In this document: in pieces, positions 20,363 through 36,046 of the stretch | Layout of the letters: every line of letters begins with the position of its first letter | Position numbering within the stretch: position 1 is the first letter of the stretch | Source: Candidatus Parcubacteria bacterium | Lineage (GTDB): Bacteria > Patescibacteriota > Patescibacteriia > Patescibacteriales > UBA12075 | Reading direction: 5' to 3' | DNA: 49,593 nucleotides | Assembly (NCBI GenBank): GCA_002869165.1 | Contig: PKTK01000011.1 | Location: 1 to 49,593 of the forward strand | Program-made: the position numbers and the translations under genes | The notes under the pieces: model-generated | Databases searched by the model: none | What the model was told of the DNA's origin: nothing | Seen by the model: only the letters and a program-made list of their open reading frames with translations

Positions 20363-20369
20363 AAATAAG

Positions 20370-20443
20370 TCGGGGTGAAAGGATTCGAACCTTCGACCTC
20401 ATGACCCCCAGCCATGCGCGCTAACCAACTACGCTACACCCCG
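20370..20443 (-). tRNA. tRNA-Pro (anticodon GGG); CCA not encoded
   Basis: CGGGGTG/CACCCCG acceptor, TAGCGTAGTTGGTTAGCGC D-arm, CATGG-CTGGGGG-TCATG anticodon arm, GGTTCGAATCC T-arm. Confidence 0.96.
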
Positions 20444-25436: not shown

Positions 25437-26300
25437 TCATAACAAATCCTCTATTTCCTGCAAACTCTTACTTGCCACCTTAGTATAAACTTGAGTAGTT
25501 TCAAGTCTAGCGTGCCCAAGCAGAGATTGAATATATCTAAGATTTACGTTGTTCTCAAGCAAATGAGTAGCAAAAGTATGACGAAGAGTATGAGCTGAAA
25601 CATTTTTATTAATTCCCGCTCTACTAGAAGCTTCAGTAACTACTTTTTGAATAGATCTCACGCTCATCCTCTTACCAGCTGATAATGACTCAAATAAATA
25701 TTTCAAAGGTTTATATTCCAGTAAATATTTATGAACATTCTCTAAAACAATCTCTGAAATTATAGTATTTCTATCCTTCTTCCCCTTCCCTTGTTTAACT
25801 AATATCATTTTCCGATCAAAATCTACATGATCAATCCTTAAGTCTTTCAACTCAGAAACACGAAGCCCAGAACAATATAATATCTGAATCATAAGCTTAT
25901 GTTTAATATTTTCACAAACCTTTATCATTCTAACAATTTCTTGTTTATACAAAACAATTTGAAGTTTTTTGTCACTTTTTGGTCTTTTAATATCGGATGC
26001 ACCATTAAGTATTCTCCTTTTTAAAATTCCTTGATAATAATATTTTAAAGAATTAATAACCAAATTTATTGTCGCACTTGATTTTCCGCTGTCTACTAAA
26101 TATTCTAAATAGTCTTTTATATCAGAAGATGTTATTTCCTTTGGTGACTTATAATTTGCAAATCTTAGCATATCTTTGTTATAATAAAGATAAGATTTTA
26201 TTGTTTTGCTAGAGAATCTAGATATTTTCATGTTCTGCTCCAAATTCCGCATCGGATCACGATCATCAGTTGTAGTTCTAGAAAGATTAGATGTATTCAT
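25437..26300 (-). CDS. Tyrosine recombinase/integrase, integron-integrase-like but without the IntI-specific insertion
   Basis: N-terminal SAM-like domain; catalytic GLRVSE, KGKKDR, HTLRHTFATH, LLGH, TTQVY; KDR to YLFES spacing too short for the I2 insertion; diverges from the cassette array. Confidence 0.92.
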   Translation of the reverse strand: MNTSNLSRTTTDDRDPMRNLEQNMKISRFSSKTIKSYLYYNKDMLRFANYKSPKEITSSDIKDYLEYLVDSGKSSATINLVINSLKYYYQGILKRRILNGASDIKRPKSDKKLQIVLYKQEIVRMIKVCENIKHKLMIQILYCSGLRVSELKDLRIDHVDFDRKMILVKQGKGKKDRNTIISEIVLENVHKYLLEYKPLKYLFESLSAGKRMSVRSIQKVVTEASSRAGINKNVSAHTLRHTFATHLLENNVNLRYIQSLLGHARLETTQVYTKVASKSLQEIEDLL

Positions 26301-26355
26301 AACTCCTTGTGATTACATAATTATATAAATATTTTAACTAATTTTTAACAAAACA

Positions 26356-26384
26356 ACAACAAGTTCACATATAACTTGTTGTAC
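26356..26384 (+). other. Putative attI-like site
   Basis: Perfect 10-bp inverted repeat ACAACAAGTT-7nt-AACTTGTTGT containing the GTT (26378) that starts cassette 1; 55 bp upstream of the integrase start. Confidence 0.6.
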
Positions 26385-26526
26385 GAAATAAATTTTTTAT
26401 CTTATAAAGTATTGATGTTTAAGTATTTTGAACACGACGAAAATTTGATTTTTTTTATTAATTTAAAGAGGGGAAATATTGTGTATTCTCTGTTACGCAT
26501 TCGCGCCACTGCGAAAACGAATTATT

Positions 26527-27813
26527 ATGAAAAATAAAAACGAAAAAAATGAACCATTAGTTGAAACCTCTACATCTTCAGCCTTTTCCGTAAACGCCGA
26601 TAATGAAATCATTGATTATAGTCAATCACCCGAATTACAAGAAATGTTTAACTGCGACCAAGGTAAACTCAAAACAGCAGCAACTTCCGCTTTTGAAAAA
26701 ATATTATCCAGAGCCGAATCAAATAGCGATAAACAGCACTTGAAAAACTTAATTGCGGAAAGTGGAAAGTATATGTCTGAAAAATCCAAGTCCAGAGAAA
26801 ATGAATTTATTCACGGAACAGGTACTGATGCGCTTTTCGGCATAATTGAGCAAGGTAAAATTATTAGACGTGGTGCAGAATTTGGTGGTGCAGATGTTGA
26901 AATGGGTCACAAAATTGACAAAACAGAAAGTGGTGAAAGGGAAACTTATATTTCTGTTTCAGAAAATCAACCAATGGGCATGGGTTTGTCATATATTTAC
27001 GCCCGTGGTTTTGCGCGACCGGAAACAATCGACAAACTTAGCATTGACGCTAACCAAATCAATCAATCAAATTCAGCTTTGGAACAATGGGACGCTTTAC
27101 CAAAAGAAGAACAATTGCGACTACAAAAAGATTATGGTTTTTCAAGAGAACTAATAGAAGGGGTAAGCGAGCGACCGCATTATTTCGAACCTCCAATTGA
27201 AGAAAATAAAATTTTTGTATATCAATCTGTCTTAGACAATTTAAAAAATAAAAACATTCCAAAAGCACCAGATGAAATGACCAAAGTTAAAGAAGTACAT
27301 CACTTATATGGCAAGACAACAAACATTGAAATAATTGAAAAAATAATGACCAATATTGCTTCGGAATTCAAAAAATGGCCAAACACTGATATCAACGATT
27401 TGATAGCTACTTATGAAGACAAACTGAAACGAACGCAATCTAGACTACAGCAATATAACAACCTGACACCAGAAGAGCAAAAAAGAAAAACCCATCAACT
27501 ACCTGTCATCTTAACTATAAAAAAAGAAGGCATACAAAATGTTCGTGAAACAAAAAAAGTCCAAGGAAAAGAGTTGCCAATACACCCATCTGAACAAGAA
27601 AGAAGAATTTATGGAGACATTGATATAACCAATATTTCTGAGATTCAGGTGCCAGAAAATATCATTACTGAAGTTAAGGCAAAAATTGAAGAAAAAATTA
27701 AACAAACCAATGACCCAATGATAGTTGAACATTTGAAAAATATAAAATTGTTGCCTTTGGAATTTTATGAAATTGAAAGGGTTGTGCAAAAACAAGTCAA
27801 CGAATTACAATAA
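26527..27813 (+). CDS. Cassette 1: hypothetical protein, possible ADP-ribosyltransferase-like fold
   Basis: Likely ATG at 26527; FIHGT...L.GIIEQGKI, YISVS and EQERRI motifs. Confidence 0.6.
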   Translation: MKNKNEKNEPLVETSTSSAFSVNADNEIIDYSQSPELQEMFNCDQGKLKTAATSAFEKILSRAESNSDKQHLKNLIAESGKYMSEKSKSRENEFIHGTGTDALFGIIEQGKIIRRGAEFGGADVEMGHKIDKTESGERETYISVSENQPMGMGLSYIYARGFARPETIDKLSIDANQINQSNSALEQWDALPKEEQLRLQKDYGFSRELIEGVSERPHYFEPPIEENKIFVYQSVLDNLKNKNIPKAPDEMTKVKEVHHLYGKTTNIEIIEKIMTNIASEFKKWPNTDINDLIATYEDKLKRTQSRLQQYNNLTPEEQKRKTHQLPVILTIKKEGIQNVRETKKVQGKELPIHPSEQERRIYGDIDITNISEIQVPENIITEVKAKIEEKIKQTNDPMIVEHLKNIKLLPLEFYEIERVVQKQVNELQ

Positions 27814-27941
27814 GGTGTTTTAGACAAAGAGCATTCACCCCTTTAATTCCCCTCTGCCCTTTGCCCAAAACGAAAAAATCAATTTTTCTTTTCTAATTGA
27901 AAAGATTTAGTTCAATTAAAACGAGATAAAAAATTTACATC

Positions 27942-28086
27942 GTACAACAACGAATATGAGGTTCAAGAAATTTACGTTATAATGTTAATAAGGAATGTAA
28001 ATTTCTTTCACCCAAATTTTGACCTCTTTTATCTACTAATACACTAAGGAGTCGGTCAAAACTTCTCATATTCGTAAACGTTAGCT
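27942..28086 (+). repeat. attC-like site 1 (branched)
   Basis: GTACAAC-A-ACGAATATGAG...AGAAATTTAC/GTAAATTTCT...CCCAAA TTTTGACC/GGTCAAAA CTT CTCATATTCGT-AAAC-GTTAGCT. Confidence 0.85.
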
Positions 28087-28158
28087 GAAATAAATAAATT
28101 CTTTTCTGCTATCGCAGAAAAATTATTAAGGCAATTTTTATTCTTTATTTTTTTTACT

Positions 28159-28926
28159 ATGAAAAATGAACTTATCATTAAAAATCTTCGTTTAGTCGTT
28201 GCGGATACTTATGAAGAAATGAGCCAATATACCGCTGACCAAATCCACAATGACATTAAAAAGAAAAGTAACCTGCTTATCTGCACTGCCACCGGCTCCA
28301 CTCCAACAGAAGCCTATGATATGCTTGCCAAAAAATATGACGATGAGCCAGAAGTATTCAGTGGCGTCCGTTTTATTAAACTTGATGAGTGGGGCGGAAT
28401 TCCCATGGATGACCCGGCAACCTGTGAGGTTTATTTACAAGAACATTTGATTTCACCGCTCCAGATTGAAGCATCAAGGTTTGTTTCTTGGAATAGTATT
28501 CCCGAAGACCCAAATCAGGAAGTGAAACGGATATCTAATATGTTTGCCGACGAAGGTGATATTGACCTTTGTATACTTGGCATGGGTGTAAACGGTCATC
28601 TCGGTTTTAACGAACCAGCGGAATTCCTACGTCCCAGTGCACACGTAGCCGAACTCACTGAAACGACAAAAAAACACACAATGGCGCAAAAGGCAGAACA
28701 TGGCATTCAGTATGGATTAACCTTAGGAATGAACGACATTATGAGATCGAAAAAAATCTTGCTATTAGTGAACGGTTCCCACAAAGAAAAGCCTTTCAAG
28801 GAATTTCTTGCTGGTAAAATTACAACTAAATTCCCAACCACCATGCTCTGGATGCATCCGAACGTCACTGTGGTATGTGATAAAGAAGTAGTTCCAAATA
28901 TTGATAAAATTAACAGCCAAAAATAA
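28159..28926 (+). CDS. Cassette 2: glucosamine/galactosamine-6-phosphate isomerase (NagB/YieK-like) family protein
   Basis: ATGSTP, LDEW, LGMGVNGHLGFNEP, GLTLGM..IM, LWMHPNVTVVCD motifs. Confidence 0.9.
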   Translation: MKNELIIKNLRLVVADTYEEMSQYTADQIHNDIKKKSNLLICTATGSTPTEAYDMLAKKYDDEPEVFSGVRFIKLDEWGGIPMDDPATCEVYLQEHLISPLQIEASRFVSWNSIPEDPNQEVKRISNMFADEGDIDLCILGMGVNGHLGFNEPAEFLRPSAHVAELTETTKKHTMAQKAEHGIQYGLTLGMNDIMRSKKILLLVNGSHKEKPFKEFLAGKITTKFPTTMLWMHPNVTVVCDKEVVPNIDKINSQK

Positions 28927-28980
28927 AGAATAAAAATTGCCTTAATAATGCTCGCTATCGCTCGCGAATTTATTTACATC

Positions 28981-29071
28981 AGCTAACAGCGTGTATACGG
29001 TTCGCGCTTGCCTCCGGCAAATGCTCACCCAAATTTGCTTTGCAAACTTCGTATACACGCAAACGTTATGT
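28981..29071 (+). repeat. attC-like site 2 (shortest complete site)
   Basis: AGCTAAC-A-GCGTGTATACG-GTTC..TTGCC/GGCAA..CCCAAA TTTGC/GCAAA CTT CGTATACACGC-AAAC-GTTATGT. Confidence 0.87.
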
Positions 29072-29095
29072 GAAATTTTTAACCTTTTTAAATCT

Positions 29096-29875
29096 ATGAT
29101 CTATTGGAAACTATATTTTTGGTTCATATCACTTATTTCAGTGGTATCAATTTTTTCAAGCATTTCTAAGTTAGTGGGGAATCCCAAGCTTGGACTAATA
29201 GTAGCGTTTTTATTTTTCATGTTTTTTAACATACTTATAGTTTTAAATCTATACTCATTTGTTTACAAGAAAAAGATTGGTAATGACATTTTCCGTAAAA
29301 TAAGTTTCTACATTGTTTCTTTTGTTGTAATGACCATATCAATAGGTGCGCTTGGCAAAATTGGAGAAAAATTATTTTACGCTATTATATTTACTATATT
29401 ACCTTTAGTCCCAGCTGTATATGGTCTATATAAACACGCATTTAAAGACGCTGCTCTAAAAACAAAAGAAAAATCTAGTTCAAAGAAATCTACTATTTGG
29501 AAAATATATTTCTATTTTTTATTGGCGTCTTTAATCTTATCTTTACTGTCCCTGGTTAAAAACTTAGAAAAAGAGTTAGTTAGCTGGAACACAATCAATC
29601 TATTTATATCTAGTTTTTCTCTTTATGGTTTGTACTTATATGTCTTCGATAAACAGAAGTTTAGTAAACAACTTTGGAAAGTTTTTCTAGCAATGTTAAT
29701 AATCTGGGACGTCACCTATTATTTTGCCCTGTCTCCTAGTACTAATTCCGAAATGCTTGAAAAAATTCCCAAAGCCCCGTACTATGCGATGTTCATGATT
29801 ACTATACCTTTATATTATGCCCTATATTTATACAGCTTTAAGTCTGAACGAAAAAAGGTTAAAAACATCACATAA
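29096..29875 (+). CDS. Cassette 3: multi-pass membrane protein with an internal duplication
   Basis: Likely ATG at 29096; two similar halves (WK.YF.F...LY.FV..K); stop TAA lies within the CATAAC site, as is common in integron cassettes. Confidence 0.8.
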   Translation: MIYWKLYFWFISLISVVSIFSSISKLVGNPKLGLIVAFLFFMFFNILIVLNLYSFVYKKKIGNDIFRKISFYIVSFVVMTISIGALGKIGEKLFYAIIFTILPLVPAVYGLYKHAFKDAALKTKEKSSSKKSTIWKIYFYFLLASLILSLLSLVKNLEKELVSWNTINLFISSFSLYGLYLYVFDKQKFSKQLWKVFLAMLIIWDVTYYFALSPSTNSEMLEKIPKAPYYAMFMITIPLYYALYLYSFKSERKKVKNIT

Positions 29876-30040
29876 CAAGCTATATCTGGCTATAGAAAAT
29901 TATCTCAATCTAAACTTCCTCAACGCTACCGCTTTTGAGAAATAATAAGGAGTATAACTTTCTTCCGGCCCAAATTTGAGATATAATAATAAATACTTAA
30001 TAAGGTATATCTCAAACTTCAGATATAGCTATAGTTAAAT
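29870..30040 (+). repeat. attC-like site 3
   Basis: AGCTATATCTG/CAGATATAGCT outer stem, CCCAAA, TTTGAGATATA/TATATCTCAAA hairpin, GTT at 30034. Confidence 0.85.
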
Positions 30041-30113
30041 GAAATAATAAAAATCCTCCTTAATTAAAAACAAAAATATTTTTGGCAATTTATTTAAGGA
30101 TATCTAAAAAAAT

Positions 30114-30443
30114 ATGGAAAATTTAAACAAAGAAGTTTTTAAACCAAATACCCCAGAAGATATAAAAAACGACATAAACATGAAACTTCAGCATTGGGAT
30201 GGTTTATACGAAACTGTTTCTGGTTGGGTTAATTTCAAAGAAAATCTTCCCTTAACTATGGAAGATATCGCAAAGATCATGACTGAAAGTGAGATAGCAC
30301 ACAATAATGTTATCAAATATTTCAGTGAAGGTGGTGAAGGGTTTGAAAAGCAACCTGAATTTTCTAAAGACAAAGTGCTACAATTTTCAGAGCTTGTTAT
30401 TTTGGAACTAAGAGACAAAGTAAAAACCTTAGAAAACAAATAA
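30114..30443 (+). CDS. Cassette 4: hypothetical protein (109 aa)
   Basis: ORF fills the cassette; AAGGA upstream; flanks are inverted repeats. Confidence 0.75.
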   Translation: MENLNKEVFKPNTPEDIKNDINMKLQHWDGLYETVSGWVNFKENLPLTMEDIAKIMTESEIAHNNVIKYFSEGGEGFEKQPEFSKDKVLQFSELVILELRDKVKTLENK

Positions 30444-30494
30444 ATTACCAAAAATATTTTTTTAAAAAAAAGGAGTGAGGATTTTTATTACTTC

Positions 30495-30637
30495 ACTTAA
30501 CACCGCGATAAGCGGCTACAGAAAAATTCCTTCAATAGATTAAATAGGAGGAAATTTTTCTTCCGACCCAAATTTTGATTCCTTAATAATTATAATAAGG
30601 AAGAATCAAAACTTCGCTTCATCGGGAAACGTTATGT
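30495..30637 (+). repeat. attC-like site 4
   Basis: CGATAAGCG/CGCTTCATCG stem, CCCAAA, TTTTGATTC/GAATCAAAA, AAAC-GTT at 30631. Confidence 0.85.
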
Positions 30638-30659
30638 GAAATATTATTAAAACTTTTTT

Positions 30660-31013
30660 ATGAAACTATTAATAGCACTCTCAAAAACATTATTAATTCT
30701 AATATTTTTCTTCTCATTTTTAACTTTAATACACTTAATCAGTAGTTTAAAAGTTATTCCTTGTGAAATAAGTGACTGTAAAGGAGACAAATTAAATGAA
30801 TTAATGGGTGGCGATATTTCAGAAAGAAATCACTGTGCAATTTTTAACCCCATTGCAGATGGAATAGATTGCACAATTAATCCACCAATACTTAAAAGAG
30901 ACAATGGTTATTATTTAATAGGGTATGCTATGTTTTTATTTGTCTTGCATTTTTATATAACAAGAAAAATATTGCCACGATTATACGAAAAAATAACGAA
31001 AAAAAAGTTTTAA
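30660..31013 (+). CDS. Cassette 5: two-TM protein with a Cys-containing loop
   Basis: Hydrophobic N- and C-terminal segments, four Cys in the loop. Confidence 0.75.
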   Translation: MKLLIALSKTLLILIFFFSFLTLIHLISSLKVIPCEISDCKGDKLNELMGGDISERNHCAIFNPIADGIDCTINPPILKRDNGYYLIGYAMFLFVLHFYITRKILPRLYEKITKKKF

Positions 31014-31022
31014 TAATACTAC

Positions 31023-31237
31023 ACATAACACCGCGATAAGCGGCTACAGAAAAATATCTAATCAAAGCTCTCTCTTTGCTACCGCTTAAGAGAGATAATA
31101 ATCAGGAGTATAATTTTCTTTCGACCCAAATTGCGCTGACGATAATCATTGTTTAGTGCTATAATGACTGTAAGTAAATAATCAATATCTAATTTATATA
31201 TCCACGCGCAACTTCGCTTCATCGGTGAGAGTTAGAC
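31023..31237 (+). repeat. attC-like site 5
   Basis: Same ACCGCGATAAGCGGCTACAGAAAAAT start as site 4; CCCAAA TTGCGC...GCGCAA CTT CGCTTCATCGG; GTT at 31231. Confidence 0.82.
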
Positions 31238-31310
31238 GTAATTGTCCTTTTTATAATTATTTTTTAAAAAAAAGAAGCCGTCTGTTTCATTTCAAACGGC
31301 TCTGACATAG

Positions 31311-31637
31311 CTAATTTTTACTATGTTCAAATTTTTTGACAAATTTATGGATTGTTCTCAGCACTAACCAGATAAAAATGATTACCGCAACTACAACAAC
31401 AAATCCAACAAATCCATTTTTTAGAAAAGAACCGAACAATCCCGATTTATACAAGTCCCAAGCACCTATACACGGTAGACATATCATACCTAAAGATATG
31501 ACTGTCATAATTCCCCCGCCTATTGGTCCCCAGTTATTATCCAAGAATGCTCCCTTATAAAAAAGTCCATACAGCATTGCCCATCCACAGATAAAAAAGG
31601 CTACACCAAAGAATATTGCTACTATCTCTCCAGACAT
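31311..31637 (-). CDS. Cassette 6: three-TM membrane protein in reverse orientation
   Basis: GGAGGG RBS, TTGACT -35 at 31720-31725, hairpin downstream; cassette ends GTTAGACG/CGTCTAAC. Confidence 0.75.
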   Translation of the reverse strand: MSGEIVAIFFGVAFFICGWAMLYGLFYKGAFLDNNWGPIGGGIMTVISLGMICLPCIGAWDLYKSGLFGSFLKNGFVGFVVVVAVIIFIWLVLRTIHKFVKKFEHSKN

Positions 31638-31803
31638 GTTATACCCTCCATTTAAGAAAATAAATTTGTCAAAAAATTAGTTTCTACTGTTGGCCTAGTA
31701 TTACATATTATTTAACATCAGTCAACACTAACAAAAACATATTTTAACACGAAAAAATAATTATAAAAATGACAACTCTGCGCTATCGCTTGCCCTTCGG
31801 GAC

Positions 31804-31942
31804 GTCTAACACTCGATATCTGGTTACATATTTTTTCCAATTAATTAATAAGGAACAAAAAAATACTCCACCCAAATTTGTGATATAATTATTAAACTTA
31901 ATAAGGAATATCCCAAACTTCAGATATCGAGAAACGTTCAGC
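31804..31942 (+). repeat. attC-like site 6
   Basis: CTCGATATCTG/CAGATATCGAG stem, CCCAAA, AATAAGGA loops, AAAC-GTT at 31936. Confidence 0.85.
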
Positions 31943-32143
31943 GAAATCGTGCGCCCTCGCTATCGCTCAGTGCTCCGCTTCCGCTAAACGGCTGCGGTCC
32001 CCGAGTTCGGCATTATCGTTTCACTTGCCCTTCGGTCAAGCGCCTCGACAACGCCGAACTCGGCATATACGAAATGTCCAGCCTCAGTCTTCGCTCCGCT
32101 CAGCCTGCGTCTGGCCACTTCGCATATACCGCAGCCGTTGTAT
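31936..32143 (+). repeat. ORF-less cassette 7 plus a GC-rich second-type site; first 140 bp duplicated at 33286-33425
   Basis: GTTCAGCG..CGCTAAAC; AAC-GGCTGCGGT...ACCGCAGCC-GTT perfect stem; CCGAGTTCGGC/GCCGAACTCGG hairpin; copies differ at 4 of 140 positions. Confidence 0.85.
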
Positions 32144-32244
32144 GAAATAGTGACTCAATCAATCTATTTTAAGTACTTGCATATATAGGATTTTTGTGCT
32201 AATTTAACTTGAATTTCATTGATTTCGTCACTACAACACACAAC
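32137..32244 (+). promoter_or_regulatory. Cassette 8: ORF-less cassette with a putative sigma70 promoter
   Basis: TAGTGAC/GTCACTA terminal repeats; TTGCAT(32177)-17-TAATTT(32200) with extended TG. Confidence 0.5.
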
Positions 32245-32797
32245 ATGTGATATGAGACTACGAGTGATGATAAATTTGTTTTTGTTCTTAATATAAAAAT
32301 TAAAAAATCAGAGTTGTGTTAACCATTAATAACAAGGAGAATTATTATGAGTGTATTAGAGCTGAGTCTGGATTTCATGATAGCCGCTAACATCTTAGAT
32401 GAATTTGAGCTAATCATTGACAAAAATGTTGGTAAAAAATATGGAGAAATCTTAGTTTTCGAATATGAGGCTGGTAGATATGCACCTGAAAAATTTTGTC
32501 GCTATGCATTGATGGAGCAAAAAGCGGAAGGGAAAATCCCTCCTGATGTTAATGCATATCACATTGTCGAACTAACATGGATTAATGCAAAAACAAACAT
32601 GATAGCATTCCAACCACTAATTCTTTAAATGCTCACGGTGTAAACTAGTAACAAAGTTTACACCCAATTCTGATTTTTTAATTAACATCAAGGAAAAAAC
32701 AAAAAATAAATTCATCATCCCTCTCCGTCCAAATTTTACAGATAATAATAAAATTAATAAGTTATCTGTAAAACTTCTCATATCACTCTAGTTGTAC
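32238..32797 (+). repeat. attC-like site 8, expanded to ~560 bp with a gene inside hairpin A
   Basis: GTGATATGAG/CTCATATCAC outer stem; arms AATTAAAAAATCAGA/TCTGATTTTTTAATT flank ORF 32347..32628; TCCAAA TTTTACAGATAA/TTATCTGTAAAA CTT. Confidence 0.8.
32347..32628 (+). CDS. Hypothetical protein (93 aa) nested in attC-like site 8
   Basis: AAGGAG RBS; followed by hairpin GGTGTAAACT/AGTTTACACC. Confidence 0.75.
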   Translation: MSVLELSLDFMIAANILDEFELIIDKNVGKKYGEILVFEYEAGRYAPEKFCRYALMEQKAEGKIPPDVNAYHIVELTWINAKTNMIAFQPLIL

Positions 32798-32894
32798 GAA
32801 ATAGCCCTTCTCATTTCTACGAAAGCAATGTTCGTGGCAAAAAAAAGAAGCCCTTGCAAATCTAATAGAAATGCGAAGGGCTACATCGTACAAC
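32791..32894 (+). other. Cassette 9: ORF-less 104-bp cassette
   Basis: GTTGTACGAAATAGCCCTTCTCATTTCTA ... TAGAAATGCGAAGGGCTACATCGTACAAC. Confidence 0.75.
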
Positions 32895-32947
32895 ATGTGA
32901 TATCTGGTTCCAGAAGTGAAAAGTTTTATTTTATTCTTTTAAAGAAA

Positions 32948-32978
32948 AAAGTCATTACTATATTTCAGTAATGACTTT
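32948..32978 (-). terminator. Intrinsic terminator of the tRNA-like RNA
   Basis: 12-bp stem AAAGTCATTACT/AGTAATGACTTT followed by a T-run on the minus strand. Confidence 0.75.
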
Positions 32979-32987
32979 AACACGGGA

Positions 32988-33122
32988 CGCGCTGCATTGG
33001 ACTCGAACCAAAGGTTAAATATCCTAACACGTTATGCTTATGCAATATGTGTGCACCCACTTACACAGTTCACAACACGTATCATTGGTATTCGACCTGC
33101 TCCCTCACTAAGCTAACAGCAC
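32988..33122 (-). ncRNA. tRNA-like RNA (135 nt) with a long hairpin replacing the anticodon arm
   Basis: Acceptor GTGCTGT/GCAGCGC, TA-GCTT-AGTGAGG-GAGC D-arm, TTGG-TTCGAGT-CCAA T-arm; extended GGTCGAATA/TATTTAACC stem. Confidence 0.7.
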
Positions 33123-33155
33123 GTTATAATCTGAATGAACATTTTAATTGATAAA

Positions 33156-33183
33156 ATAGTAACATAAATTTCACACTTGTCAA
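33156..33183 (-). promoter_or_regulatory. Sigma70 promoter for the tRNA-like RNA
   Basis: TTGACA-16-TACTAT with extended TG. Confidence 0.65.
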
Positions 33184-33285
33184 TAACACCATGAAATAAA
33201 ATAAAACTTTTCACTTCTTACTCCCAAATTTTTGAAAAATAATTAATCTTAATAAGGAGTTTCAAAAACTTCAGATATCACCCTA

Positions 33286-33425
33286 GTTCAGCGAAATCGT
33301 GCGCCCTCGCTATCGCTCGATGCTCCGCTTCCGCTGAACGGCTGCGGTCCCCGAGTTCGGCATTATCGTGTCACTTGCCCTTCGGTCAAGCGCCTCGACA
33401 ACGCCGAACTCGGCATATACGAAAT
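33286..33425 (+). repeat. Cassette 10: second copy of the ORF-less GC-rich unit, truncated at CATATACGAAAT
   Basis: 136 of 140 bases identical to 31936-32075. Confidence 0.85.
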
Positions 33426-33516
33426 AATAAAAAACATTTTCCATTCGGAAAATAATTATTTTGTTAATTTATAAAAAAAGAGTTCCATGATTTTTCCTTC
33501 ATGAAACCCTATGGTG

Positions 33517-33753
33517 CTAACTTGTATAAAAGGGGCAGTCACCAAACTCCAAGATATCGTCCGATTTTTTATTGGACGCATTACAGACGTCGAGATTGGA
33601 TACTTTTTTAAAATGCCTACATAATGGTTTACTCAGACCAGATTTATAAATCTTCACGATAACGTTTTCTGCTTCTGGCAAAACTTTACCATTATTCTTG
33701 TCCACTCCTTTACAATTCACCTTATGCGTTCCTATGATTTCATCACGTACCAT
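33517..33753 (-). CDS. Cassette 11: small Cys-containing protein in reverse orientation with its own promoter
   Basis: AGGAGG RBS; TTGACA(33873)-17-TAGTAT(33850); four Cys. Confidence 0.75.
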   Translation of the reverse strand: MVRDEIIGTHKVNCKGVDKNNGKVLPEAENVIVKIYKSGLSKPLCRHFKKVSNLDVCNASNKKSDDILEFGDCPFYTS

Positions 33754-33901
33754 TCTTACAACCTCCTTTTTTTATAAATTAACAATATAATTTTGAAATT
33801 GCTATTACCTATTTAAACATTTATACTGAAAAGACCGATGTCATATACTACAATATTTAAATTAATCTGTCAAGGCGCAATTTCTAGTTTTTTACTACAT
33901 A

Positions 33902-34019
33902 ACATAACACCACGATATACGGTTCGGTCTCCTATCGGAAACCTCTCCCAAATTTATGATATAATTAATTATACTTAATAAGGTATATCATAAACTTCGT
34001 ATATCGGGAAACGTTATAC
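33902..34019 (+). repeat. attC-like site 11
   Basis: CGATATACG/CGTATATCG stem, CCCAAA TTTATGATATA/TATATCATAAA CTT, AAAC-GTT at 34013. Confidence 0.85.
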
Positions 34020-34161
34020 GCAATTCAAAAAATATTTTCTTTTAATTAGGTTTTTGATAGGCAATTAATGAGAATTTAAATTTGATTTTTTAATTAATTA
34101 TAAAGGGGGAAAGTTGAGTTCCTTCACTGGTGTTCAGGAGACAATTTAATTTTAAATATTT

Positions 34162-35112
34162 ATGAATTATAAAAAATATTTCTCTGATAATAATCTCATA
34201 GAAAATAAGAATATCCCTAATTCTGTGTGGCTAGATTACGTAAAAAATGGCATTTACCCAGTTAGAGGTTTGGTATTTTTCTATTTTTTTATACTCATTT
34301 TAATGCTGTCTTTTTTTATTATTCCGTCATTGAATATTTATCAAAAAATAAAAATTGAATTTCTTGGAGATGATTTCACTTTATTTGTTTACATTGCTAT
34401 TTCATCATTGTTATTCCTGATACTCTTTTTTAAATATTTTAATAAAAAAGGTGATTACTGGAGAAAGGTTCCTATTAATAATTGGTTTAGATCATGGAGA
34501 ATTTATAATTTTTTAGAATATTTAGAAAAAGAAAATATTTCAAATATTGGGCTATTTGATAAACAAAAAAACATTTTTCAAATAAATTCATTCAAAAATA
34601 CTGGAGTTATTACAATAGACTACATTATTGATTTAGGGCTACTTGCCACAGCAGACAGAAAATCGCCCATTAATTACACATTTCGGACTAATAAAGAAGT
34701 TGAAGCAGGTTATGAATATTCTCATTTTTTTAAACTATCTTTTGAAAGTTATATTTTTAGAAAACTAAAAAATACAATATATTTTTATGGCAATAATCGA
34801 AGTACTTTTAGTAGATATCTATTTTTAGAAACAATTAAAGACAAGGGTAATGTTTTTTTAAAAAATGATGATGAAAACACCGGGGTCAATAAATTGCTTT
34901 ACGATATTAAAAAATTAATACAAGATTACCCAAACTTAAAAGGAGAAATATTGATTGACAACACAAGTGTAGTGGTTAAATTTTATGACAACTATAGACA
35001 CTTCACTATGCTCAACACTGACGGGAAACAGTATTTTGATTTTTTGAAAAATAAAAATAATTTGTTTGAAAGTTTTGAAGGTTGTGAAAAATTATTAAAC
35101 ATTTTGAGCTAG
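34162..35112 (+). CDS. Cassette 12: membrane-anchored hypothetical protein (two TM helices)
   Basis: 316-aa ORF; flanking sequences resemble those of cassette 1. Confidence 0.75.
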   Translation: MNYKKYFSDNNLIENKNIPNSVWLDYVKNGIYPVRGLVFFYFFILILMLSFFIIPSLNIYQKIKIEFLGDDFTLFVYIAISSLLFLILFFKYFNKKGDYWRKVPINNWFRSWRIYNFLEYLEKENISNIGLFDKQKNIFQINSFKNTGVITIDYIIDLGLLATADRKSPINYTFRTNKEVEAGYEYSHFFKLSFESYIFRKLKNTIYFYGNNRSTFSRYLFLETIKDKGNVFLKNDDENTGVNKLLYDIKKLIQDYPNLKGEILIDNTSVVVKFYDNYRHFTMLNTDGKQYFDFLKNKNNLFESFEGCEKLLNILS

Positions 35113-35201
35113 CTATTATTTTTATTAAAACAAAAAATAAAACTTTCTCTACAATTATTTAACATTTAATATATTTAGCAACGCGATAAAAAACTTACAT
35201 C

Positions 35202-35343
35202 GCACAACAAACGATATACGGCTACAGAAAAATTCCTTTATTAATTAACACCAAGGAGTAAACTTTTCTTCCGACCCAAATTATAAAAATGAACATTAAT
35301 TTAATAAGGTATTTTTAGAACTTCGTATATCTACTTATTGTAT
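35202..35343 (+). repeat. attC-like site 12, degenerate end of the array
   Basis: GATATACG/CGTATATC stem and CCCAAA present, but terminal GTT is replaced by ATT (35337). Confidence 0.75.
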
Positions 35344-35392
35344 TAAATAATTAAATACCTTTTTTTAAAAATCACATTTTAAACAAATATTT

Positions 35393-36046
35393 ATGTCTAT
35401 GAAAAAATTTCATTACCAAGACGCTATCAAATTTTGTTGGGAACGCATGAAAGAAAACTTTTGGTTTTTCTTTGGCTCCTTAATGACAATTGGCTTGGTT
35501 AGTTGGATCTCTGAGGATGTTGACAAGCTTAGTGAAAACAACCCTTCTTTTGATTTGACCATCTTGAGTATCTTACTATTAATGTTGATGCTAATATTAG
35601 ATCTAGGCATGATGAATATTTCTCTAAAAATTCATGACAAAAAAGAGGTGACTTATACAGATCTATTCAATCTATACCCTAGAATATTAAAATACTTTTT
35701 AACCAATCTTCTATACTTTTTAATTGTATTCGGAGGTTTATTGCTTTTTATAGTTCCGGGAATAATTTGGGCCATCAAATTTCAATTTTGTAGTTATTTG
35801 ATTGCTGACAAAAACTTGGGGCCAATTGAAGCTCTGAAGGAAAGCTCTAGATTAACCAGAGACGCCAAAATGGATCTTTTCTTCTTTGGTTTTATTGTTT
35901 TTATTGTAGTCTTAGCTGGGGCTTTGTGTTTAGTAATTGGTTTGTTCTTTGCTATACCAACTGTCATGGTAGCTTATGCATATGTTTTTAGAAAATTACA
36001 AGAAAATAAAATAGAAATAATCAAAGAACCTGAATCAAAAAAATAA
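35393..36046 (+). CDS. Integral membrane protein, DUF975-like
   Basis: GLLLFIVPGIIWAIKF...EALKESSRLT...K.DLF pattern. Confidence 0.75.
   Translation: MSMKKFHYQDAIKFCWERMKENFWFFFGSLMTIGLVSWISEDVDKLSENNPSFDLTILSILLLMLMLILDLGMMNISLKIHDKKEVTYTDLFNLYPRILKYFLTNLLYFLIVFGGLLLFIVPGIIWAIKFQFCSYLIADKNLGPIEALKESSRLTRDAKMDLFFFGFIVFIVVLAGALCLVIGLFFAIPTVMVAYAYVFRKLQENKIEIIKEPESKK

Follow-up and report, generated by a model that had tools for sequence, protein, structure and literature searches.

Cassette-specific end pairing in an integron-like array beside a Xer-like recombinase gene of a Patescibacteria bacterium

The cassette array described here lies in a stretch of 49,593 nucleotides (nt) from an uncultured Candidatus Parcubacteria bacterium (assembly GCA_002869165.1, contig PKTK01000011.1), which as a whole is referred to as the window. 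Judged from its sequence, the array is integron-like, with a gene for a Xer-like tyrosine recombinase, an attI-like site, and at least 10 cassettes that are parted by compound hairpin sites resembling attC. In most of these cassettes the two ends are complementary to each other well past the recombination core. This pairing is specific to cognate ends and recurs in about 20 related genomes, and the two ends of one cassette change together. Most likely, the long end pairing lengthens the DNA hairpin that would be cut by the Xer-like recombinase.

Pairing between the two ends of a cassette

Cassette ends were compared by locally aligning the 5′ end of each cassette to the reverse complement of its 3′ end. 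With the boundaries used here the window holds 11 cassettes; cassette 7 of an earlier preliminary description becomes two cassettes here, c7a and c7b, and one outside the range of that description, c10, is added. Eight of the 11 (c1, c2, c3, c4, c5, c6, c7b, and c8) have ends that pair past the core, with stems of 20–29 nt when no gaps are allowed and reaching 60–77 nt with gaps. The three repeat pairs quoted in the preliminary description (28122–28146 with 28925–28949, 29076–29089 with 29852–29865, and 30045–30058 with 30477–30490) are exact and occur once each, and the right half quoted for cassette 3 does lie inside the coding end of its open reading frame (ORF), 28991..29875. The same pairs were also returned by an independent repeat finder (I2, I3, I5, I12, I13, I14, I16, and I21). 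Similar pairing had been claimed for cassettes 1, 5, 6, 8, and 9; it is present in c1, c5, c6, and c8 and absent from c9, in which the core matches at 4 of 7 positions and the ends are unpaired.

Cassettes for the statistics of pairing came from the window, from 18 related loci, and from a second array of the source genome, on contig C6. This yielded 64 candidates, of which 14 were dropped beforehand because the core matched at five or fewer of its seven positions or the cassette was shorter than 90 nt, and 50 were kept. The first 12 nt of each cassette, termed the R arm, were excluded from the pairing test, and non-cognate flanks from the same arrays served as the control. The mean flank alignment score is 35.6 for cognate flanks (n = 50) compared to 17.2 for non-cognate flanks (2438 pairs). 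Cognate pairs lie above the 95th percentile of non-cognate pairs in 37 of 50 cases and above the 99th percentile in 32 of 50. Moreover, 34 of 49 cognate comparisons show 6 nt or more of unbroken pairing immediately behind the 12-nt arm, compared to 0.3% of 2352 non-cognate ones; the median run is 9. Fifteen cassettes have no such run. Eight of these carry a GC-rich insert of 24–66 nt (ACTC...GCGCTGCGCTC...) beyond which the complement resumes, and five have a single early mismatch or indel after which pairing continues. Since the pairing is present in the ORF-less cassettes c7b and c8 and in c6, whose gene is reversed, it follows the arms and not the gene.

Co-variation was assessed in a family of 10 cassettes from 10 genomes with related flanks, and nine extra cassettes were used for the family alignment only. 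The flanks of this family share a layout of arm, stem S1, a variable middle that often has a small hairpin on each side, stem S2, and a ribosome-binding region. The 5′ and 3′ flanks of the same cassette have an identity of 0.92 in S1 and 0.79 in S2, compared to 0.61 and 0.60 for flanks of different cassettes, and the identity between cassettes is about 0.60. In the unpaired middle, the corresponding values are 0.28 for cognate and 0.27 for non-cognate flanks. The matched state takes two or more forms in 9 of 14 columns of S1 and in 17 of 28 columns of S2. The repeats had been suggested to record how cassettes are made. That the two flanks still co-vary while cassettes have diverged by about 40% speaks for pairing that is actively maintained and not for a decaying relic.

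Folds were predicted with DNA parameters. The circular junction, which consists of the 3′ flank, the site, and the cassette's own 5′ flank, was compared to the junction as found in the array and to 30 shuffles of the cassette's own 5′ extension. It folds more stably than both in 8 of 8 window cassettes, and shuffling costs 5–35 kcal/mol, which means that the ends are not matched by chance. For example, c2 has a fold energy of −70.4 compared to −35.0 ± 1.8 after shuffling, and c4 has −53.0 compared to −29.4 ± 1.9. The weakest gain is that of c9, at −37.7 compared to −32.3 ± 2.6, or about 2 standard deviations. In each of the eight junctions, the predicted fold of the bottom strand is more stable than that of the top strand. 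The minimum-energy folds consist of one continuous stem, made of the extension, the R arm with an internal loop, a bulge, the L stem, and a three-way junction; in the predicted fold of c2, two small hairpins add a four-way junction. The earlier idea that a single-stranded cassette is able to form a stem with the gene as its loop thus agrees with the folds, the non-cognate controls, and the co-variation, and this stem is continuous with the recombination site.

A comparison with classical cassettes, which had been proposed together with the shuffled controls and the folds of both strands, also sets this array apart. PMC2727003 describes self-pairing in most classical cassettes as extending past the 7-nt R boxes to 9–11 nt. 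In an anchored scan that allowed at most two mismatches and no gaps, 6 of 10 class 1 cassettes from three plasmids gave 9–15 matches, the other four gave none of at least 9, and none of the ten exceeded 16 nt. The same scan gave 18–27 matches in six window cassettes, though there the conserved loop consumes both of the allowed mismatches. Apparent matches of 60 nt in L089 are two inverted copies of the intI1/attI1 region and not cassette ends, and they were disregarded.

Site anatomy and the proposed recombination hairpin

The attC-like hairpin sites span 67–723 nt and are compound. Their first half consists of the R″ arm (ACATCnnnnAAC), 1 nt, an 11-nt L″ arm, hairpin A, and CCCAAATT. Their second half consists of hairpin B, AACTTC, an 11-nt L′ arm, 3–5 nt (usually AAAC), and the R′ arm (GTTnnnnGAAAT), which has the pattern G|TTnnnnGAAAT. 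The stem sequence of hairpin B varies from site to site. A first site finder produced many false AT-rich matches; with a stricter one, window sites 4, 5, and 10 escaped detection and were placed by eye. In total, 84 attC-like sites were found in 28 loci, each with an 11-nt L stem of at most two mismatches, a count that is not unbiased because the finder demanded arm-like flanks.

L″ is complementary to L′ of the same site, while the four variable bases of R′ match the next R″ downstream instead. The switch between a partner across the site and a partner across the gene falls at GTT, and the crossover is therefore placed at G|TT, as in integrons. The 7-nt core matches at seven or six positions in 50 of the 64 candidate cassettes. 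In one related locus (L005, minus strand), a cassette of 0.5 kb occurs three times behind three different sites (oriented starts 11508, 14407, and 15774). The identity between these copies opens at GTT and closes after ...GAAC GTTAT, which fits unit boundaries at G|TT. Copies 2 and 3 differ at two core positions only (GTTAGGC and GTTATGT) in the 599 nt compared. Copies 1 and 2 show 22 aligned differences, of which 20 are in or near the coding part and none is in the flank stems.

The conserved ATA of the L arm and GTT lie 6 nt apart on the R″–L″ strand in 55 of 64 sites, as at attI (6–7 nt), and mostly 9 nt apart on the L′–R′ strand (39 sites). Given this strand difference, the site once folded would resemble the attI duplex except for a bulge of 3 nt on one strand. 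The length of the R arm is 12 nt, not 7 nt. GAAAT facing ACATC gives a G-C pair, an A-T pair, two non-pairs, and a T-A pair, with a 2×2 internal loop at positions 10–11 of the arm, in which the bottom-strand non-pairs are T.T and G.T. The recurring internal loop that had been noticed next to the core, GAAAT opposite ACATC or ACTTC, is thus confirmed. Its reading as a second recombinase-binding arm has to be replaced; the segment makes up the outer half of the one 12-nt R arm (GTTnnnnGAAAT), an arm that is also present at attI as an ordinary duplex, and the second arm is the L″/L′ stem. The cassette-specific pairing begins beyond the 12-nt R arm. On the L side, the helix is continued by AACTT/AAATT pairing and by hairpin B. 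An excess of A-C mismatches, which are G.T on the bottom strand, had been noted as well. It exists in the 7-nt core, where 13 mismatches are of the bottom-strand G.T type and 1 is of the top-strand type, though some genomes contribute more than one of these mismatches, so that the counts lack independence. It does not exist in the extensions, where the numbers are 11 and 12, and the argument from bottom-strand G.T thus covers the core and the arm only.

Together with the control statistics, the co-varying flanks, the folds, and the unit boundaries, this anatomy makes it fairly probable that the recombination hairpin of each cassette has an R-arm helix whose outer part is formed by the paired flanks, that this helix is split at G|TT, and that the extension stabilizes the R arm. 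In an excised, circular, single-stranded cassette the two flanks would be adjacent and could zip into the extension, the R arm, the 3-nt bulge, the L stem, and the three-way junction. Integration would then cut this long stem at G|TT and leave its halves at opposite ends of the cassette, where they would be seen as inverted repeats around the gene. Alternatively, the ends may meet across the gene in single-stranded DNA of the array, which would give the same stem. The extension would keep the R arm double-stranded and close the conserved loop of GAAAT opposite ACATC; it would be needed because a loop only two positions short of the helix end requires further base pairs beyond it. The helix on the R side could be continued only by the cassette's own flank, while the L side would have hairpin B. 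With the extension, the folded site would mimic the duplex geometry of attI. We infer that such single-strand folding takes place in the cell and that this recombinase cleaves at G|TT, and the stabilizing role of the extension is proposed on the same basis.

Several points weigh against this proposal. Three of the 11 window cassettes (c7a, c9, and c10) have no end pairing past the core, and 13 of the 50 cassettes fall below the 95th percentile by local alignment, although most of these have short anchored runs. The extension mismatches show no G.T bias, and the extension itself is therefore silent on which strand folds. Two of the three L005 copies have the core GTTAGGC while their own R″ is GTTATGT, which a strict crossover at G|TT does not explain. 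The co-variation could also stem from concerted evolution, for example from repair within the hairpin, without a selected role. In addition, the cassettes were defined by our own finder, with GAAAT/ACATC-like arms and restricted spacers, and 8 matches were removed by eye; the genomes are related to one another and are not independent samples; and the evidence is computational throughout, with recombination itself deduced from it.

Other explanations of the repeats differ in how well they account for these observations. It is unlikely, if not negligibly so, that the repeats are a by-product or relic without a selected length, left by the formation or copying of cassettes (such as the capture of a gene in the loop of an empty hairpin cassette like c8) or by hairpin repair or gene conversion. 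ORF-less cassettes that are nearly stem only do exist (c8 and c7b), flank families are common to cassettes of different genomes, the length of the pairing is highly variable down to its absence from three window cassettes, and the extension mismatches lack a strand bias. However, a passive relic would decay, whereas the flanks match at 0.92 and 0.79 despite the divergence of about 40% between cassettes and a middle at 0.28. Moreover, the run right after the arm is nearly universal, and concerted evolution would itself need formation of the hairpin. A by-product of this kind would nevertheless fit the same structure. A role in RNA is improbable; here the 5′ and 3′ untranslated regions of a cassette transcript would pair, with the effect of insulating cistrons, protecting the message, or masking the ribosome-binding site. 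In its favor, the top strand of the array carries most cassette genes, and in one family the 3′ flank CCCCTCT complements the AGAGGGG ribosome-binding region in the 5′ flank. Yet the recombination arms anchor the pairing, which is shared by ORF-less cassettes and by c6 with its reversed gene. Top-strand G.T (G-U) mismatches are not in excess (12 compared to 11), the bottom strand folds better in all eight junctions, and an Rfam search of 26000–36000 gave 0 matches at E ≤ 0.1.

Genes bounded in series by inversely oriented two-arm sites of tyrosine recombinases are known from the pdif modules of Acinetobacter plasmids and from shufflons and invertons, and the genes of this array likewise lie between inversely oriented two-arm sites in serial arrangement. 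The recombinase might then use the repeats as duplex sites, flipping the genes as in a shufflon or inverton or moving modules as has been proposed for pdif. A tyrosine recombinase gene does adjoin genes that are each flanked by inverted repeats, two window genes (those of c6 and c9) are on the opposite strand, and pdif sites alternate in orientation along their array, as the two-arm sites do here. Such inversion is nevertheless about as improbable as the role in RNA. In every bona fide site that an unrestricted finder returned, the spacer is 1 nt between R″ and L″ and 3–5 nt between L′ and R′, and the partners are thus not equivalent duplex sites. GAAAT is always on the left and ACATC always on the right, regardless of the orientation of the gene, and the repeated unit in L005 is a direct cassette repeat bounded at GTT. 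Finally, chance complementarity in AT-rich DNA of low complexity deserves hardly any credence, even though the region has 27–35% G+C and non-cognate alignment scores reach 39. It is contradicted by the 32 of 50 cognate pairs above the 99th percentile of non-cognate pairs, by the anchored runs of at least 6 nt (34 of 49 compared to 0.3%), and by the 5–35 kcal/mol that are lost when a cassette's own extension is shuffled.

The recombinase, related systems, and distribution

The recombinase gene (25437..26300, minus strand) encodes 287 amino acids (aa) and is transcribed away from the array. The protein is Xer-like and does not contain the integron-integrase insertion. Pfam family PF00589 aligns with it free of insertions (E 6.8e-41, residues 116–277 with model positions 2–170). 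It passes the XerA model NF040815 of NCBIfam, with 231.4 bits compared to a cut-off of 220, and fails the integron-integrase model TIGR02249, with 196.1 bits in two stretches compared to a cut-off of 265; a TIGR02249 search of the whole genome gave zero matches above the 265-bit cut-off. The top relatives of solved structure are P. abyssi XerA (4a8e, 8.8e-43) and VchIntIA (8.9e-41). In the alignment to VchIntIA (2a3v), residues 184–212 of the recombinase stand opposite chain residues 172–242, with about 42 residues absent. This gap falls where the IntI-specific (I2) helix presumably sits. The source genome also contains other tyrosine recombinase genes, and the 287-aa recombinase may have a dif role besides the cassette array.

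The attI-like site (26360..26389, plus strand) reads CAAGTTCACATATAACTTG|TT and runs on into the cassette 1 R arm, GTTGTACGAAAT, with a putative crossover at 26378/26379 that is deduced from the sequence. It sits 60–80 nt upstream of the start of the recombinase gene, and the cassettes extend rightward from it. The corresponding position in related loci has AAGTTCG(C/T)ATATAAC, 1–3 nt, and then GTTnnnnGAAAT. The array on contig C6 (G000:C6:47100-48600, minus strand) opens with the same 21-nt attI-like sequence, CAAGTTCACATATAACTTGTT, with no recombinase gene beside it.

Integrons share several features with this array. In both, the recombinase gene is divergent from attI and the cassettes, and the sites are imperfect palindromes with R″/L″...L′/R′, a conserved AAC...GTT, and a variable loop, giving an asymmetric helix with unpaired features. 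They also agree in that the bases just behind G|TT are already part of the following cassette, whose own R″ they match. Unlike an integron integrase, the recombinase here is without the IntI-specific insertion and below the TIGR02249 cut-off. The sites differ as well. Their arms are 11–12 nt long, the R arm has a 2×2 internal loop, a 3-nt bulge takes the place of the classical extrahelical bases, and two conserved inner hairpins (CCCAAATT...AACTTC) are present, with 22 of 84 sites spanning at least 300 nt. In addition, the end pairing is far longer, cassette-specific, and co-varying. The likeness to Xer/dif systems of the XerA type lies in the recombinase, which passes the XerA model; the difference is that an array of at least 10 sites, and not a single duplex dif site, adjoins the gene.

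In the discussion of PMC4792948, Xer recombinases are described as lacking I2-like domains, the CTX-phi hairpin as mimicking duplex DNA, and a Xer-like ancestor is proposed for the integron integrases. The CTX-phi system, in which XerCD recombines a folded single-stranded attP(+) hairpin with dif, resembles the array described here in combining a Xer-type recombinase that has no I2-like domain with a long stem of single-stranded DNA imitating a two-arm duplex site. Here, unlike in CTX-phi, there is no phage, many small tandem cassettes lie beside their own recombinase gene, and the stem is cassette-specific and would be split by integration.

Homologues of the recombinase at E ≤ 1e-40 are found in 152 of 401 sampled genomes of the class. 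Forty homologue regions were taken, of which 38 were analyzed. The R-arm motif is present at the attI position in 26 of 34 related loci with enough upstream DNA, and of the 31 related loci that are 3 kb or longer, 22 have one or more attC-like sites. The system appears to be widespread in this class of Patescibacteria. Many related contigs end a few hundred bases upstream of the recombinase gene (for example L069–L072 and L083), as would be expected if repeated or strain-variable arrays break assemblies. Standard integron finders require an IntI domain and would probably miss the system. Full-text literature searches, with subscription journals outside their coverage, turned up no account of such integrons in Patescibacteria and none of extended attC stems.

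Two open questions about integrons are touched together here, namely the origin of IntI from Xer and the making of cassettes and attC sites. The recombinase is without the domain that is thought to adapt IntI to single strands, and its sites may compensate by closely imitating a duplex, including a long closing helix. It is conceivable, but doubtful at present, that a large lineage of Patescibacteria has integrons run by a Xer-like recombinase that never gained I2 and would recombine folded single strands thanks to the long duplex-mimicking hairpin that each cassette supplies, with ends zipping over tens of base pairs, and that this is a living form of the intermediate between Xer and integrons proposed in PMC4792948. 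The pairing of the flanks also gives a simple prediction that can be tested by breaking and then restoring it.

Cassettes and sites of the window

The window is AT-rich, with 27–39% G+C, and comes from contig 11 of a 1.43-Mb genome in 15 contigs. The features that follow are on the plus strand unless stated otherwise. The 5′ stem half of cassette 1 (26378..26454), which consists of the 12-nt R′ arm and the extension, aligns to 27873–27948 with 58 matches, 14 mismatches, and 9 gap columns (repeat I3). The 3′ stem half (27873..27948, from the alignment and the repeat finder) consists of the extension and the R″ arm ACATCGTACAAC. In site 1 (27937..28091), L″ (ACGAATATGAG) and L′ (CTCATATTCGT) pair with 0 mismatches, and the spacers are 1 and 4 nt. 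The 5′ stem half of cassette 2 (28080..28152; repeats I2 and I21) has 60 matches with 28919–28987 and holds the small hairpin TTTTCTGCTATCGCAGAAAA; its segment 28122–28152 is 31 nt long and 100% paired (I2). The 3′ stem half (28919..28987) is returned by alignment, repeat finder, and fold. Site 2 (28976..29076) has L″ GCGTGTATACG and L′ CGTATACACGC, again with 0 mismatches and spacers of 1 and 4 nt.

The stem halves of cassette 3 are shorter. The 5′ half (29065..29089, repeat I12) is complementary at 23 of 25 positions to the 3′ half (29852..29876), which lies inside the end of ORF 28991..29875, and the stop codon TAA of this ORF (29873–29875) is within the R″ arm. Site 3 (29865..30045) has L″ AGCTATATCTG and L′ CAGATATAGCT with 0 mismatches. 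In cassette 4, the 5′ stem half (30034..30095; repeats I13 and I14) has 53 matches with the 3′ stem half (30438..30501, from the alignment and the repeat finder), and site 4 (30490..30642), which the automatic finder misses, was placed by eye and has an indel in its L stem. The 5′ stem half of cassette 5 (30631..30659, repeat I5) pairs at 27 of 29 positions with the 3′ half (31001..31029), which overlaps the end of ORF 30660..31013; site 5 (31018..31242) was likewise placed by eye after being missed by the finder. In cassette 6, the R′ arm and 5′ extension (31231..31265, repeat I16) match 31752–31775 at 23 of 24 positions. The 3′ end (31752..31810) consists of this extension (31752–31775), a 24-nt GC-rich insert (ACTCTGCGCTATCGCTTGCCCTTC) that displaces the pairing, and the R″ arm. 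The gene of c6 (31311..31637) is on the minus strand. Site 6 (31799..31947) has L″ CTCGATATCTG and L′ CAGATATCGAG with 0 mismatches.

An ORF-less, GC-rich stretch follows (31936..32136), formed by mini-cassette c7a (31936–32059), whose ends pair in the core only, and a short GC-rich site. This GC-rich element has a second, partial copy at 33286–33420; each copy comes directly after the GTT of an R′ arm (repeats I1, I10, and I17), and the element has an inner palindrome, CCGAGTTCGGC...GCCGAACTCGG. The short attC-like site within the first copy has neither CCCAAATT nor AACTTC. Mini-cassette c7b (32137..32244) is also ORF-less, and its ends pair at 28 of 38 positions without gaps. Site 7 (32233..32802) holds an ORF of 93 aa (32347..32628) in its hairpin A, with the inverted repeat 32298–32319/32662–32683 around it (I23). 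The first long site of the array on contig C6 is homologous to site 7 and likewise has a small ORF within it. Cassette c8 (32791..32894) is ORF-less and 104 nt long, with 29-nt arms that pair at 26 of 29 positions around a 46-nt loop. Site 8 (32883..33297) has a perfect 24-nt hairpin-A stem (32912–32935/33195–33218) that encloses 259 nt (I9). Part of site 8 (about 32980–33010) resembles the 3′ end of a tRNA and was rejected as one; ARAGORN finds only a tRNA-Pro at 20369–20443 in the window.

Cassette 9 (33286..33908) opens with the GC-rich repeat and has non-complementary ends, and an internal inverted repeat at 33454–33480/33766–33792 (27 nt, 96%, I7) encloses a minus-strand ORF (33517..33753). 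Site 9 (33897..34024) was placed by the automatic finder. Cassette 10 (34013..35208) holds ORF 34162..35112; its cores differ at two A/G positions, and extension pairing was not found by the alignment. Of 10 proteins searched, Pfam names only the recombinase and a glucosamine-6-phosphate isomerase-like protein of c2; seven are without a family and one has a weak match below threshold.

Cargo is found inside the sites as well as in the cassettes. The span from AAC to GTT is at least 300 nt in 22 of the 84 sites, including window sites 7 and 8 (32233–32802 and 32883–33297) and sites of loci L048, L052, L053, L057, L058, L041, L073, and L076. An ORF of 57–189 aa that starts with ATG lies between L″ and L′ in 21 of these 22, nearly always on the top strand, and the exception is window site 8, with 34 aa only. 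In 19 of the 22, a site-specific inverted repeat of its own (hairpin A) surrounds the stretch from L″ to L′. With these ORFs between L″ and L′, cargo would therefore be carried in loops on both sides of the recombination arms. The ORF-less, stem-only cassettes and the genes in loops on the R and L sides hint at an origin of cassettes by entry of a gene into the loop of an empty hairpin cassette.

GC-rich modules of 24–66 nt (ACTC...GCGCTGCGCTC...GTCGGCTC) are placed between the R″ arm and the flank complement, and small hairpins with GC-TATC-GC loops occur at corresponding positions of both flanks. Such modules and hairpins are seen in the window at 28102–28121, 28950–28975, and 31776–31799 and elsewhere in L004, L005, L041, L044, L054, L080, L081, and L085. 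The cassettes concerned have GGGTC or CCCTC in place of ACATC. Counts of 8-mers in the extensions gave no general shared motif, only A/T-rich words together with GGGGTGAA and GCGCAGCG in 3′ flanks, and GGCAATTT recurs in a few cassettes only. One cassette family has a conserved C-rich 3′ flank (..TTCCCCTCTGCCCTTTGCCCAAAACG..), found at 27830–27880 of the window and in L041, L046, L049, L054, L057, L073, and L077; this flank complements AGAGGGG, the ribosome-binding region on the 5′ side.

The last recognizable site of the window, site 10, closes at 35320–35345 in a degenerate R′ arm, TTGTATTAAAT, and not in GTTnnnnGAAAT. Because of this degenerate arm, the array probably ends or decays there. 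GC skew is negative in 22 of 24 segments of 2 kb (positions 1–48000 of the window); if skew marks the replication strand here, this would weakly suggest that the bottom strand of the array is the lagging-strand template.

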